Source: Fidelibacterota bacterium
GTDB lineage: Bacteria > Fidelibacterota > Marinisomatia > Marinisomatales > TCS56
DNA: 45,009 bases
Assembly: GCA_043822705.1 (NCBI GenBank)
Contig: JBDRBK010000110.1
Span: 1 to 45,009 of the forward strand
Direction: 5' to 3'
In this document: positions 32,257-38,653 of the stretch, piece by piece
How the letters are laid out: each line of letters opens with the position of its first letter
Position numbering within the stretch: the stretch's first letter is position 1
Position numbers and translations under genes: made by a program
Notes under the pieces: generated by a model
Told to the model about the DNA's origin: nothing
The model's database searches: none
The model's input: only the letters and a program-made list of their open reading frames with translations

Positions 32257-33081
32257 CTAACTACGATAAACTCGCAATCGGCCGGCAAAATATTTTATAA
32301 CATAGCTGAGTCCCAGCAATAGGGCTCCCAAGGTGATTATCACCGGTCCTGACGGCAGGTCGAAAATGTATGAAAAATACAGACCACCCAGTGAAATGAC
32401 GATTCCGATCAGCGTCGATATCAGGATTACCAGCAGGAATCGGCGCGCCAGCATTAGACCGATCAACGGCGGTATTGTCAGCAAGGCGATGACCAGAATC
32501 ACCCCCACCAGTTGGATCAGCAAAACGATGGAAACCGCTATCATCAGCATGAACACGATCATCAGTGTCCGAACCGGCAGACCTTGCACCCGGGCAAATT
32601 CCTCATCGAAAGATATGGCGACGAATTCCTTGTAGAATGCAAAGATCACCGACACGACAATGATGTCGATTATCAGGGTCACCAATATATCCTGATTGGA
32701 AACGGCTAATATATTACCGAACAGGTACGTCATCAGGTTCGGTGCGTAACCAGGCGTCCGGGCAATAAATATAATCCCGACTGCCATTCCCAGGGCCCAC
32801 AGAATGCCGATTAAGGAGTTTTGACTGATTAATTTTTCCCGGTTAGCCAGCCCAAGAATTACCGCCATTATCGCAGTTACCAGGAATCCACCCGCCAGCG
32901 GATTTAATCCCAGATAATAAAAGGCACCGATCCCGCCAAAAGCCGCATGACTGATACCACCGCTGATAAATACCAATCGTTTAACGACAATGAAGGTGCC
33001 GAGCAGTCCGCAGAGGATGCTGGACAGTACGCCGATCAGAATGGCGTTTCGAATAAATTCGTAACTGAGCAGTTCACCCAT
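32257..33081 (-). CDS. znuB: Zn/Mn ABC transporter permease
   Basis: ISHAAFGG, YLFGNIL, SFDEEFARVQG, VGVILVIALLTIP, LPSGP. Confidence 0.88.
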   Translation of the reverse strand: MGELLSYEFIRNAILIGVLSSILCGLLGTFIVVKRLVFISGGISHAAFGGIGAFYYLGLNPLAGGFLVTAIMAVILGLANREKLISQNSLIGILWALGMAVGIIFIARTPGYAPNLMTYLFGNILAVSNQDILVTLIIDIIVVSVIFAFYKEFVAISFDEEFARVQGLPVRTLMIVFMLMIAVSIVLLIQLVGVILVIALLTIPPLIGLMLARRFLLVILISTLIGIVISLGGLYFSYIFDLPSGPVIITLGALLLGLSYVIKYFAGRLRVYRS

Positions 33082-33082
33082 G

Positions 33083-33835
33083 TCAATCCCGGTGGCGTTT
33101 CAGCACCCGATGAGGTACGCCATGAGCGATTAATTCCACCGGACAGCCATACACTTGGTTGAGTGTCGCTTCCGAAACCTCACCTGAATCGTGAACATAA
33201 ACCTGGCGGTTCACACAGACGATCCGTTTAGTCGCCGGAGTAATGGCGGTGGCATCATGGGTGATCAGCACTATCGGGATACTTTGATTGAAACGGTTCA
33301 GTATCGAATTCAAAGTATTTCGTGAATCGGAATCAATGGCGGCGGTTGGTTCATCAAGAATCAATAATTCCGGTTCGGAAATCAGGGCCCGGGCGATCAG
33401 GACCCGCTGCAACTCGCCACCGGATAATTCACTGACGAAGGCATTCAGCAGATGAGTAATCCGGATTTCTTCAGCGATGTCACGAACCGCCCGGTCATCA
33501 GCACTGTTAAACCATCGCAACAGACCACGCCGATAGCAGCGCCCCATCCGGATGATTTCAGAAACCTGCAATGGGAATTGCCAGTCAAAAGTGGAAAACT
33601 GGGGCACATAGCCAATCCCGCGCCGCCCCTTCTCGAGCCGCAGGATTACCTTCCCTAATCGCGGAGCAAGCAGACCCAGAATCAATTTGGCCATAGTGGT
33701 TTTACCACCACCATTGGGACCGATAACGACCATATAATCCGTGGCATAGATTGCGAGGTTGACCCGTTCCAGCACCGTGCGGTTATCGTAACCGAAGCTG
33801 ACGTCATTCAATTCTACTAATGCCGGTTCAGTCAT
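33083..33835 (-). CDS. znuC: Zn/Mn ABC transporter ATPase
   Basis: GPNGGGKTT, IGYVPQ, LSGGELQR, LDEP, C-terminal YGCPVELIAHGVPHRV. Confidence 0.88.
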   Translation of the reverse strand: MTEPALVELNDVSFGYDNRTVLERVNLAIYATDYMVVIGPNGGGKTTMAKLILGLLAPRLGKVILRLEKGRRGIGYVPQFSTFDWQFPLQVSEIIRMGRCYRRGLLRWFNSADDRAVRDIAEEIRITHLLNAFVSELSGGELQRVLIARALISEPELLILDEPTAAIDSDSRNTLNSILNRFNQSIPIVLITHDATAITPATKRIVCVNRQVYVHDSGEVSEATLNQVYGCPVELIAHGVPHRVLKRHRD

Positions 33836-34739
33836 TGGTCAATGAATTTTTAAATATTTGGGCGACTTTTCGCAGATTATTCAGCCAATCATATTCCAGT
33901 GGATTCAACTCCACGATTTGGCCGCCGGTTTCACGGGCAATGATTTCGGCGCTGCGCCGGGAAAATCCCTGCTGCACGAAAATCACTTTGATGTTCTCGG
34001 TCTTTGCCTGATCGATGATATCGATCAATTGCGCGGGGCTCGGTTCCTTGCCCTGCGCTTCGATTTCAACCTGTTCCAGATCATATTCCCGGGCAAAATG
34101 TCCCCAGACCGGGTGATAGACCAGGAATTTTCTGCTTTGTACCGTGCTCAACTCTGTCCTGATTTCCTGATCCAGATTAACAATTTCATCAAGGAAGATA
34201 TCGCTGTTTCGTTGATAAAAACCGGCATTATCGGGATCGAGCGACATCAATCGGGCGGTAATGACCTTCACGGCGGAACTGACGGTATTCGGTGAAATCC
34301 AGATATGCGGATCGGTCTCATCACCACCGTGTGAATGCACCGCTGTCGGCTCCGCGCCATGCTCCGGCCGGTTGACTTCTGGACCAGCCCACATCGAAAT
34401 CACGGTAATCGTGGGTAATTCGGCCAGGACCGGTTCGATATGAACCGGTTCGAAAATAAAGTTGGGGTGGCCAATCTTGACATAAATCGCACTCCGGGCA
34501 AGCTTTACTACTTGCCGTGGTGTCGGTGCATAAGTCGCCGGCGCCGCACCGGATGGTATCAGGTAATCGACCGTGACCTTATCGCCGCCGATCCGCTTGA
34601 CGAAATAAGCCTGAGGCGCGATACTGGTCATCACCGGTATTGGTGGTCCGGACCGGGCCATTGTCATCGATAAGATTAAAATCAGTGGCAGTGATCCGGA
34701 GCGGACGGTGAGTGATCGCAGTAATCTTAGCTGTCCCAT
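33828..34739 (-). CDS. znuA: Zn/Mn ABC transporter substrate-binding protein
   Basis: Short His-containing loop (EHGAEPTAVHSHGG), DPHIWISP, VYHPVWGHFA, GKEPSP; start codon uncertain. Confidence 0.85.
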   Translation of the reverse strand: MGQLRLLRSLTVRSGSLPLILILSMTMARSGPPIPVMTSIAPQAYFVKRIGGDKVTVDYLIPSGAAPATYAPTPRQVVKLARSAIYVKIGHPNFIFEPVHIEPVLAELPTITVISMWAGPEVNRPEHGAEPTAVHSHGGDETDPHIWISPNTVSSAVKVITARLMSLDPDNAGFYQRNSDIFLDEIVNLDQEIRTELSTVQSRKFLVYHPVWGHFAREYDLEQVEIEAQGKEPSPAQLIDIIDQAKTENIKVIFVQQGFSRRSAEIIARETGGQIVELNPLEYDWLNNLRKVAQIFKNSLTND

Positions 34740-34854: not shown

Positions 34855-35271
34855 TCAGCCGACGACCGGGGACTTGAGAGTAAGTTTGCCGTTGCCACCA
34901 TTGATCAGTTCCAACTGGGCAATCAGTTGTCCCTGATTTACCGGTTTGCGCAAAACTCGGTCGGCGCCGGTAATGGTCAAATTATCGGATATTGTATCCG
35001 TGGCGGTAACCACCACTATCGGTTTGGTGAATCCTGTACGCCGTAATTCCCGGATTGTGTCCAGACCGCTCATGCCGGGCATGTGGATATCCATGAATAC
35101 TATCTCCGGCTGATGGGTATTACAGAGTCGAATCGCTTCATCGCCACTCAGGGCTGATAAAATATTCCCGTTATAAGCCTGCTTCAAAAAAAACTGGTAC
35201 AGGCGATTGACGGAAATATCGTCATCTACAATTATAATCGATCGGTCTATCGTTGGTTCAGTGGATTGCAT
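34855..35271 (-). CDS. Stand-alone response regulator receiver (CheY-like)
   Basis: IIIVDDD, VFMDIHMPGMSG, VVVTA, LRKP; no output domain; TGATG overlap with the TPR gene stop. Confidence 0.9.
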   Translation of the reverse strand: MQSTEPTIDRSIIIVDDDISVNRLYQFFLKQAYNGNILSALSGDEAIRLCNTHQPEIVFMDIHMPGMSGLDTIRELRRTGFTKPIVVVTATDTISDNLTITGADRVLRKPVNQGQLIAQLELINGGNGKLTLKSPVVG

Positions 35272-36761
35272 CAGTCCAGACCCTTAGTTTTCATCAGTAC
35301 TTGTTGGTAAGAAATATCCAGATCGTCGGCCAGCTTTCGTTTATTATGCTGGTATTTATTGAGCAGGAAATCAAATAGGTCACTATCGAATTTTTTATTT
35401 GCCGATCGCCAATCAAGAACGGCAATGCTGTCAAGATAACGCTGGAAATAGGGATTATTTTCAATTTGTTTCGGAATTCCCGGTCCCCGTTTTAAGCCCA
35501 GTTTTTTCTGGTGTGTAAAGTAGGTCCTTGGTTCGATTTTAAGTTTCTGGCACATGTCCGGTGCGTTTTTGGAGCGATCCAGATGAAGTTTTAGCAGATT
35601 TGTATGGAAAATATCACGAATATCCTTCAGTGATTTATCCATGGTAAACCTGAATATTTCAGCGTTGAGATCAATCTCGACAATAGATTTATTTCGGTCA
35701 AGAAAACTGATGTAGGAATTCAGTAATTTCTTCCGATATCCAAGAATCCGTAGGCCCAGATCGATCTCCTGTTGCAGGTCCTTATAGCCCGTTGCATAGT
35801 ATTTATCCGCCAGCGCTTTTTCCCCGATTTTATCATGGCACAGACCCAGTTTATAATAATCTTCGAATGCCATGTCGCGCATCTCATAGCGCGTTGTCAA
35901 TTGAAGTGATTGCGAATGATAGCGAATGGCCTCTTGATACTCCCCCTGTTCGAATTCCAAATATCCGAGGTTTTGCAATGCCAGACCTTCTTGATAGGGT
36001 GACAATTCATGACTCAGGATGTCCGTATATATCAATTTAGCATTGATGAAATCACTCTCCATCACGAATAGCCACCCCCGATCATTCAATACATCATATT
36101 TATATAAATCGAGCTTATGCCTTTCGGATAATTCAATGGCCTGATCGTAGTATTTCCTCGCCAAACCGAAATCATTCTTCGCTAAGTACGTTGTACCAAG
36201 ATGACGGAATAAACGAGCGATACGTATATAATTATACTTTTCTTTGTAGTAACTGAGGCAACGATTAATAATTTCAATTGCCAAATCTGGATTACTGAAT
36301 TTATAACTCAAGGCTAATTGCGTAGTTAATTTCCAATAGAGTCCATTATTCTTTGTTAATCTGAGAGCCTCATTCAATATCGCAATTGCTTCGTTTTTAT
36401 ACCCTAGTTTTCTCAATAGATTGGATAGTTCCGAATAAAGTAAAGCAATAGATTCGTCACCCGATACTAAATCAAAAGACGTTTTAAAGGCTGCAAACGC
36501 CTTTAGATAATTTCCAACGAATGTATGAATCCCCCCAATTCCTGCTAATACTATCCCCTTTAACTCTTGATCTTCTACATTTTCTAATTGTATTAATTTA
36601 TTTAAAGCAATTTTACTCGAGATAATATTCAGATCTGATATCTCAGTCATTACTTCAACATAATTTTGTACAATTAGGTTTTTTGTTAAATCATTTAAGG
36701 ATATCTCTATTTTTGGAAATGGAACAAGGGATTTAACATCTATTGAAACGGTTTTATTCAT
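35271..36761 (-). CDS. TPR-repeat protein with two C-terminal Fis-like helix-turn-helix motifs; putative transcription regulator
   Basis: TPR-like units (LGTTYLAKNDFGLARKYYDQAIEL; LQNLGYLEFEQGEYQEAIRYHSQSLQL; LGLCHDKIGEKALADKYY); residues about 376-423 and 449-496 resemble each other and Fis/HTH_8. Confidence 0.75.
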   Translation of the reverse strand: MNKTVSIDVKSLVPFPKIEISLNDLTKNLIVQNYVEVMTEISDLNIISSKIALNKLIQLENVEDQELKGIVLAGIGGIHTFVGNYLKAFAAFKTSFDLVSGDESIALLYSELSNLLRKLGYKNEAIAILNEALRLTKNNGLYWKLTTQLALSYKFSNPDLAIEIINRCLSYYKEKYNYIRIARLFRHLGTTYLAKNDFGLARKYYDQAIELSERHKLDLYKYDVLNDRGWLFVMESDFINAKLIYTDILSHELSPYQEGLALQNLGYLEFEQGEYQEAIRYHSQSLQLTTRYEMRDMAFEDYYKLGLCHDKIGEKALADKYYATGYKDLQQEIDLGLRILGYRKKLLNSYISFLDRNKSIVEIDLNAEIFRFTMDKSLKDIRDIFHTNLLKLHLDRSKNAPDMCQKLKIEPRTYFTHQKKLGLKRGPGIPKQIENNPYFQRYLDSIAVLDWRSANKKFDSDLFDFLLNKYQHNKRKLADDLDISYQQVLMKTKGLD

Positions 36762-36912
36762 TCTCGTTTGTGCCGGAGTCCGCCTGTACTGCTGTTAAAT
36801 AAACAATGTCAATATTCTGTTTTGAATCTGATGAATCTAAAAGATTCGCGCCGGAATATACCGCTAAAGAAATGGTCAATGAAACTAATGCTACTATTTG
36901 ATTGATGGTCAT
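36754..36912 (-). CDS. Small 52-aa protein with signal-peptide-like N-terminus; candidate signalling propeptide
   Basis: Manual translation MTINQIVALVSLTISLAVYSGANLLDSSDSKQNIDIVYLTAVQADSGTNENE*; AGGAG 6 nt before ATG; stop overlaps the TPR gene start by 8 nt (ATGAATAA); below the ORF-track cutoff. Confidence 0.75.
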   Translation of the reverse strand: MTINQIVALVSLTISLAVYSGANLLDSSDSKQNIDIVYLTAVQADSGTNENE

Positions 36913-36943
36913 GATAATCTCCTGTTAGGTTAATTTTCACTCT

Positions 36944-36972
36944 ATTGTACTGAAATATTTTGTATATATCAA
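36944..36972 (-). promoter_or_regulatory. Sigma70-like promoter for the small ORF-TPR-regulator operon
   Basis: Minus strand TTGATA (36972-36967), 17 nt, TACAAT (36949-36944), about 30 nt upstream of the small ORF ATG. Confidence 0.65.
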
Positions 36973-37066
36973 GATTTATTTTATACATTCAACTACGCCA
37001 GAATCACCGTACTCAATAGATTAACCAACACTAATCTGAAACGGAGTTTGATCGAACGATTAAACA

Positions 37067-38653
37067 ATGCTGACCTTGACCGAAAAAACAACAGAACATT
37101 TCCGCTATCACCCCCTTACCGGTTCTACCAACCCGACCACAACGAAAGTCCTGATAGTCGAAGATGACAAGAATATTGCCAAGAATCTGAGTTATTATCT
37201 GTGTGAAATGAACTATTCCCTATGCGGCGTCATTCGGTCAGGGGAAGAACTTCTCGAACGAATCAATGAGTACCAACCTCAAGTGATCTTGATGGACATT
37301 CAACTGGCGGGTGAATTGGATGGGATAGCTACGGTCGAAAAATTGAACCGAATCTATGACATTCCGGTTATTTATTTGTCGGCTCGCACTGATATGGAGA
37401 CGTTATCCCGGGCCCGGGCTACCGGACAGTTTGGCTATCTGATTAAGCCAGTGAATCCGCTGGAGTTGCATTTCACGATTCAAATGAGCCTCTATAAACA
37501 CGAAGCCGATAGCGTTATACAATCCACCAGGGACTGGCTGCAAACTGCTTTGAACAGCATTGGTGACGGCGTGATCAGTACCGATCCGTGCGGTGTGGTG
37601 ACATTTGTAAATCCGGTCGCCGAAAATATTCTTACAACCACAAGGGACCAGTTATTCGGCCAAAATATTCATGATAACCTGTACCTGATCGACGACAATG
37701 AAATAAATTCGCTGTTCATTTCATCCGACCAGGTAATCGAAGATGAACAATCCCGGAAAATTGCGGGACAAATTCTGGTAAACCGGAAGAAGGGCACGGA
37801 GATTCCCATCGACGGGACCGTTTCGCCGATCATCCGACAGAATGGTAACTTTGATGGCAGTATCTTCGTCTTCCGCGATATAACCAGCCGTATCGAAAAC
37901 GAAAAGTCACAGAAATTACTGGGCGAACAATTGCGTCATTCGCAGAAAATGGAGGCAATCGGATTATTGGCCGGCGGAATTGCCCATGAGTTCAATAATA
38001 TTATTGCCAGTATTTCCAGTTACGCACAAGTGGCTATTACCCAGATTTCGCCCGATGCACCCACCCTGCCGTACTATCAGACGATCCTGAGAAAGTTAGA
38101 TCATGCCACGGTTTTGACGCGCAAGCTGCTGACGATGAACCGCAAGCAGGATCTGAACTTCATGGCGGTTGACCTGAACCAGGTTACCGGCGAACTGGTC
38201 CGGTTTCTTCGTCAGACCATTGTCAAGGATATCAACATCACTTTTGAATTGGATAAGACCATCAAGCCGGTTCGGGCCGATGTGAACTCCATTGAACAGA
38301 TTATCACTAATCTCTGCCTGAATGCCCGTGACGCGATTGATGGCCATGGTACGATTCATCTGTCGACGGCCCAAGTCCGTTCGAGTTCGGAGATCCATGA
38401 TTCATTGACCGATCTGACCGAACCGGAATATGTGCAACTGACTGTGACCGACAACGGCTGTGGAATGGATGAACAAACATTGCAGCGGATATTTGAACCA
38501 TTCTTCACAACCAAATCCGGTGAAAGCGGTACTGGCTTGGGATTATCGATGGTTTACGGGTTGATGAAACAGCACAAAGGAGCGGTACACTGTTCCAGTC
38601 AACCGAACATCGGTACAATTTTTAACCTGTATTTTCCAAATGCTGCACCTTGA
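37067..38653 (+). CDS. Hybrid sensor histidine kinase (REC-PAS-HisKA-HATPase), soluble
   Basis: VLIVEDD...LMDIQL...[15 protein letters not shown]...[55 protein letters not shown]. Only convincing plus-strand gene. Confidence 0.93.

Follow-up and report, generated by a model that had tools for sequence, protein, structure and literature searches.

The window, a stretch of 45,009 nucleotides of DNA that was analysed as a whole (contig JBDRBK010000110.1, positions 1 to 45,009, of the Fidelibacterota bacterium assembly GCA_043822705.1, the source genome being called G000 below), carries a three-gene operon on the minus strand and, divergent from it, a kinase gene, laid out as follows:

34855..35271, minus strand: single-domain receiver of 138 aa, CheY/Spo0F-like (PF00072), accessory to the system
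35271..36761, minus strand: regulator of 496 aa, predicted to be cytoplasmic, with a TPR solenoid (residues ~62-357) and two Fis-type HTH units (~365-422 and ~437-492)
36754..36912, minus strand: precursor ORF of 52 aa (type III, see below), with a hydrophobic N-terminal segment, a polar spacer and a C-terminal heptad
36757..36777, minus strand: the heptad SGTNENE, residues 46-52 of the precursor and its predicted mature signal (family consensus S-G-x-x-(E)-N-x)
36919..36923, minus strand: RBS AGGAG of the precursor, with AGGAG also at the six homologous type III loci
36944..36990, minus strand: promoter block of 47 bp, conserved over seven loci, and a putative operator
36972-36967 (-35, TTGATA) and 36949-36944 (-10, TACAAT), minus strand: promoter hexamers with a spacer of 17, inside the conserved block
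within 36944..36990, minus strand: inverted repeat TGTATA-N15-TATACA, straddling the -35 box
37067..38653, plus strand: hybrid histidine kinase, REC-PAS-HisKA-HATPase, divergent from the operon

The three ORFs lie where the original prediction had placed them, with overlaps of 8 nt between precursor and regulator and of 1 nt between regulator and receiver, and the AGGAG claimed for the 52-aa ORF is present at 36923-36919. The promoter TTGATA-17-TACAAT was also located as predicted, inside the conserved block, but its hexamer match alone is at chance level, with 8 promoter-like sites found vs 8.1 in shuffles. The block itself (36990-36944) has 95% column identity over seven homologous loci vs 67% for the DNA farther upstream, and a regulon scan of G000 found no second copy of it (next score -0.2 vs 69). 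A terminator-like site at 34868-34856 was discarded as being at chance level, two such sites having been found vs 1.7 in shuffles. The locus is AT-rich, with 30-43% GC vs ~53% for the genome; since synteny is kept across the family, it is not regarded as a recent insertion.

The small ORF is real, as an equivalent 52-54-aa ORF with its RBS precedes the regulator in all six other members of the subclade, and the view that it is a chance ORF is refuted by its conservation at the protein level. The hydrophobic N-terminus ascribed to it was borne out by a Kyte-Doolittle 12-residue maximum of 2.5, although the n-region Lys of its homologues is missing. The expectation that most homologues would have a 40-60-aa ORF upstream did not hold, however, and most have instead either tandem-heptad lipoproteins or lipoproteins of ~175 aa with the motif at their end. 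Precursors come in three forms. Type III (52-54 aa, without Cys) comprises the window and its six relatives, with M1, S46, G47, E50 and N51 invariant in 7/7. Type II is a lipoprotein-type ORF of 49-105 aa that ends in 2-10 tandem heptads and is often separated from the receptor downstream of it by 350-700 nt or by one inserted antisense gene; two single-heptad relatives are convergent and downstream of the receptor. Type I is a lipoprotein of 165-240 aa with a beta-rich body and a variable, unstructured tail. The lipobox Cys is invariant in the type I and II relatives. Types I (175 aa), II (49-105 aa) and III (52 aa) have only the signal and the tail in common; on this comparison it is the tail that is retained, and the carrier can be dispensed with. 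In the model of a type I lipoprotein the tail is the unstructured end, and the fold has no clear match, the best being cupin-like beta sandwiches at Z 5.8; Foldseek gave no match to it at E 0.001, and no Pfam or NCBIfam family was found for the body.

Several variants of this arrangement occur. Two type I precursors (L194:1297-2470 and L195:1622-2762) have the beta carrier domain doubled in tandem (~380 aa) with one tail. At locus L025 a second lipoprotein (232 aa, tail GGETNN) stands before the type I precursor, ~650-1360 nt upstream of the receptor. An opposite-strand gene of ~2.8 kb splits precursor and receptor at L006, L012, L017, L029, L030, L048 and L052, from three families, and the linkage persists. 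In contigs from one RNA run 5/30 bins were covered, with the precursor outside these, and sequencing runs gave small shares only (0.07-0.16).

The last heptad of the precursor reads S-G-x-x-(E)-N-x in the clade of the window, with S1 in 25/26, G2 in 26/26 and N6 in 24/26 and with positions 3-5 and 7 variable, the 26 heptads being those left after L024, L014 and L021 (one N-masked, two hexamers) were dropped. Among the tandem copies in nine precursors there are 37 synonymous codon variants vs a single amino-acid variant, and the codon record indicates that the heptad is under purifying selection. The tail pattern, which was defined post hoc after the data had been seen, occurs in 3/832 exported-like ORFs of G000, the window ORF included. 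An overlap with the receptor start codon might have forced the motif, and this was ruled out because the motif persists without overlap: it is retained where the precursor lies 350-4200 nt off or is convergent downstream. SGTNENE itself recurs as a tandem pair in another genome (G220:C58), ~390 nt from the receptor and with the genes not overlapping, so that the overlap is not the source of the motif. SGTNENE is named as the probable mature peptide on the evidence of sequence comparison. The distant tails are merely Gly/acid-rich, without a fixed motif. Paralogues within one genome differ in their tails (SGTNENE, SGTDQNS and SGFNEN in G220; SGHRENG and SGGSDRG in G175; and also in G124 and G104), much as pherotypes would by analogy.

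The regulator was predicted as a TPR protein, and this was borne out by Pfam (TPR_12, E 3.8e-21). It has no N-terminal hydrophobic segment and, at 496 aa, falls within the 250-500 aa range of cytoplasmic TPR receptors. Its predicted C-terminal HTH motifs gained support at the level of the family, but the window's own protein scores nothing for them in Pfam; HTH_8 is matched in 11/24 family members, the NtrC-family DNA-binding domain 3e7l matches the C-terminal module at E 0.01, and structure rows of the ESM Atlas include matches to both C-terminal halves. In the AlphaFold model (pLDDT 87) the TPR solenoid comes first and two small helical modules come after it, and the reversed domain order that had been predicted is confirmed, with TPRs at ~62-357 and the Fis-type HTHs at ~365-492. 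In structural comparisons the TPR model reached Z 21.8 with LGN, Z 21.4 with peptide-bound Rap (8rte; rmsd 5.2, 304 aligned) and Z 19.3 with NprR (4gpk), the top rows being tied among Rap, eukaryotic LGN and other TPR proteins, so the modelled fold match shows no function. Sequence similarity to NprR, at E 5e-5, is at the generic TPR level and below that of many unrelated TPRs. Clusters with a TPR plus Fis HTH_8 architecture were also seen in Acidobacteriota, with a feature score of 0.93-0.94 (ESM Atlas).

Relatives of the regulator, 72 of them near full-length among 74 matches, carry the labels Marinimicrobia or Fidelibacterota; a few matches are labelled Bacteroidetes or Chloroflexi and may be misbinned. 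With a 49-row profile at E 1e-30, relatives were found in 84/401 Marinisomatota (Marinimicrobia) genomes, and none of the 139 candidates from viral contigs was one. The 140 distinct full-length receptors fall into three groups by FastTree, namely the window's clade (50), a distant group (51) and a partnerless clade (39); the tree came with long-branch warnings, and thus no root and no order of events are claimed. A partner was found by HMM for 63 of the 140. In the window's clade it is present at 29/50 loci, most of the others being at contig ends; where 3.7 kb or more of DNA upstream is available the figure is 21/23, which leaves 2/23 informative loci without a precursor. Among the 51 distant receptors 34 have a type I lipoprotein, and of the 17 that have none many are second copies, divergent from a complete pair; receptors without an adjacent precursor therefore number 56/140 (39 + 17). 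These linkage counts are partly circular, because the partner HMMs were built from these same loci, and no p-value is claimed, since every count includes kin, which are not independent of one another.

A genome-wide lipoprotein profile that takes no account of the receptor matched 50/401 genomes, 46 of which are receptor-positive when the lists are compared by hand (base rate 84/401). Of the four that are off the receptor list, three are explained by contig ends and one by an adjacent receptor that has diverged. Twenty-nine new lipoprotein matches were inspected, and a family receptor lies directly downstream in 22/22 that are informative, the other 7 being at contig ends. The type II profile matched 10/401 genomes, 9 of them receptor-positive. 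Taken together, the comparison across genomes shows that a predicted cytoplasmic TPR plus tandem-Fis-HTH protein is accompanied by a precursor that has an apparent export signal and, at its C-terminus, a heptad under selection.

In the partnerless clade, a sister clade (L084-L101, L105-L111, L113-L114, L117, L119, L131, L135-L140, L142-L143 and L159), the gene immediately downstream and coupled to the regulator mostly encodes a large secreted protein, which is variable. In another set of loci, family f24 (L103, L115, L121, L124-L130 and L163), a second diverged receptor without a precursor of its own is divergent from a lipoprotein-receptor operon, and it may share that neighbouring operon's peptide. 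The receiver, confirmed as CheY-like by PF00072 and with its phosphoacceptor set (D16-D18, D61, T89, K109) intact, had been counted as part of the core of the system and turned out to be accessory: where there is enough downstream DNA it follows the receptor at 15/44 near-clade, 3/32 distant and 0/38 partnerless loci, with three further near-clade downstream genes resembling receivers by eye. The divergent hybrid kinase was found at 6/7 type III loci and is possibly a regulated gene or the partner of the receiver.

Among the receptor residues, R117, N264 and E300 are invariant within the window's clade, and R180, R186, N226, D227 and Q263 are 92-98% conserved. N226 is found at 92% and 91% in the two precursor-bearing groups, but the 39 receptors of the partnerless clade have His in its place in 94% of cases; there R117, R180 and N226 are replaced and His184, His219 and His226 stand at 100, 100 and 94%, while N264 is also retained, at 92%. 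The three histidines possibly mark a branch that senses a metal or another ligand. In the TPR position numbering that we assume, N226 and N264 occupy helix-A positions 5-6, which would face the groove according to the repeat register. In RRNPP proteins the backbone of the peptide is bound by conserved Asn residues of the groove (PMC4794775).

Heptad position 3 covaries with receptor residue 190 (1/300 permutations, 19 dereplicated pairs), and among held-out pairs the rule fits 6/10 and misses 4/10, the fits having among them the combination of His and an aromatic residue, seen in a lineage apart. This covariation in the alignments is suggestive. A second candidate, position 7 with residue 140, was perfect in the 19 pairs and was rejected as phylogenetic after it failed the contrasts L004, L009 and L024. 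A complex prediction with receptor residues 1-362 and precursor residues 23-52 scored 0.02 (mark 0.32) and weighs neither way.

The nearest known systems are the RRNPP(A) systems of the Bacillota, such as NprR-NprX and Rap-Phr. Common to both are a small, apparently exported propeptide beside a cytoplasmic TPR protein of 250-500 aa, a Spo0F-like receiver in the vicinity and the TPR fold match, as well as a C-terminal core of 5-10 residues and tandem copies, as in the tandem-pheromone Phr of PMC11343458; conserved Asn residues stand at putative groove positions. PMC10075063 gives five signature features, of which four are present in the window, the signal peptide being putative; its propeptide range of 10-100 aa covers the 52 aa of the window and excludes the 165-240 aa of type I, and gene adjacency is seen as the 8-nt overlap in the window and as linkage across the family. 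An effector at the N-terminus and TPRs at the C-terminus, as in RRNPP(A), is not the order of the window's regulator, which begins with its TPRs and has a tandem Fis-type HTH as the effector at its C-terminal end. The systems also differ in that the host here is a diderm phylum of the FCB group rather than Bacillota or their mobile elements, that most precursors here are lipoproteins, many with a folded beta carrier of ~130 residues, and that Opp is often not found in these genomes; copies run up to 10, vs 1-4 in PMC11343458, and sequence similarity is only at the generic TPR level. The upstream position of the peptide gene, offered in the original prediction as a departure from RRNPP, is not one, being nothing unusual there according to PMC11343458. 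Because domain order and host differ and no specific homology was seen, the module is treated as one that would work like RRNPP and is not filed as a member. As for the DNA-binding end, each of the two C-terminal modules resembles the NtrC/Fis-family domain (PF02954), with the difference that here two modules stand in one chain, fused to TPRs and without an AAA+ or receiver domain.

Action between cells must involve passage of the peptide across the outer membrane. The original prediction had seen no importer and left re-import unexplained, and this stood in so far as SBP_bac_5 (Opp) and PTR2 have no match in G000, which is 93% complete, but an OPT-family gene is present. SBP_bac_5 is matched in 37/53 system-bearing genomes and unmatched in 16/53. 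OPT is found in 52/53, but also in 313/401 genomes of the phylum, and was therefore rejected as a dedicated importer; being phylum-wide, it offers a possible route for the peptide and is not evidence of one. The OPT-family transporter of G000 (G000:C90:7863-10870) is translationally coupled to a gene that is probably deaminase-like, judging by its motif, and this coupling may point to a non-peptide substrate. No protease gene was found linked to the module. A further parallel is Qsp1/Opt1 of Cryptococcus, a secreted peptide that acts inside the cell after uptake by an OPT-family transporter (PMC7537855); G000 has an OPT gene too. That system is fungal and without a TPR receptor, and the link is a lead only.

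The best explanation, to which we give a probability of about 0.6, is an RRNPP-like one-component module whose regulator would bind the tail once this had been exported, cleaved and re-imported, with a change in DNA binding as the result. The exported propeptide and TPR/HTH receptor proposed for a diderm have strong comparative support; export, release, re-import and binding are steps that we infer. The precursor would leave the cytoplasm through Sec, as a lipoprotein (SPII) in the case of most relatives, and a periplasmic or extracellular protease would free the heptad, here SGTNENE, with tandem forms yielding several copies. The peptide would then re-enter cells, possibly via the OPT-family transporter or via Opp where present, and would bind in the concave TPR groove through the conserved N226/N264 and R117/R180/R186. 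Binding would alter the hold of the tandem Fis module on the block over the -35 box, so that the operon, and perhaps the divergent kinase too, would be regulated by its own product. A tie to a phosphorelay, through the receiver and the kinase, would be confined to this lineage.

The same ligand-receptor pair could instead work within one cell, reporting Sec/Lol capacity or envelope proteolysis, with the un-exported precursor as ligand or a tail that is cut off in the periplasm and at once returned to the same cell. Such a cell-autonomous monitor would suit a system in which the majority of precursors are membrane-anchored lipoproteins, neither a dedicated importer nor a protease is linked, and the operon's own promoter is the sole copy of the block in G000. 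However, up to 10 identical copies under apparent purifying selection are better fitted by signal amplification and the distinct tails of same-genome paralogues by separation of channels, and the system is patchy, not being found in 317/401 genomes searched; we consider such a monitor rather unlikely. It is distinctly unlikely, in our judgement, that the heptad is not the regulator's ligand and acts outside the cytoplasm as protease bait, a modified or RiPP-like core or a surface tag, with the TPR-Fis protein sensing some other molecule. Among the neighbourhoods inspected there is no recurrent modifying enzyme, the putative groove residues are changed in the partnerless clade, and the adjacency of precursor and receptor survives both inversion and insertion. 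What lends this idea weight is that the repeats are Gly/Ser/Asn-rich and of low complexity and that many members have no adjacent precursor, the clade of 39 being found mostly with large secreted proteins instead, so the family can work without a peptide.

That the module serves against phages or resembles a toxin-antitoxin pair, or that the small ORF is there by chance, might be suspected from the AT-richness of the locus and from two weak generic TPR matches in PADLOC. Synteny across the family, conservation of the ORF at the protein level, the 0/139 result for viral contigs and the lack of any effector domain make this highly improbable. The preferred reading of an exported and re-imported peptide can be taken one step further, to a peptide communication that evolved independently in diderms and is phylum-wide, in which the variable C-terminal tail of a folded lipoprotein was the first form of the signal, later reduced to multi-copy or minimal propeptides, the TPR receptors carry a single-chain DNA-binding unit like a Fis dimer, and several separate channels operate per genome; this wider proposal is tentative, and we put it at somewhat under an even chance.

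In PMC10075063 and PMC11343458, intracellular peptide-receptor signalling is described only for Bacillota and their mobile elements. No published description of the TPR-Fis/heptad family was found in a search made mostly outside subscription journals. Clusters with N-terminal TPRs were discarded in the RRNPP detection of PMC10075063, and the dropping of a TPR-first architecture by strict filters is maybe why the family was overlooked. If true, a working equivalent in the Marinimicrobia, an uncultured diderm phylum, would mean that this logic is not confined to monoderms, having either arisen or spread outside them, would pose the problem of a peptide's passage through two membranes, and would make available a series of precursors from lipoprotein tail to propeptide. 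Dozens of cognate receptor and heptad pairs and a candidate operator can be named, and the proposal is therefore testable without culturing.

Beyond the operon, on the same strand, lie metal ABC transporter genes of the znuA-znuC-znuB type (32257-34739 in the window), znuA being called by Pfam and the znuC- and znuB-like genes by eye. The transporter is possibly a target regulated by the module. Similar znu-like genes likewise follow the operon at L003, L004, L005 and L007.
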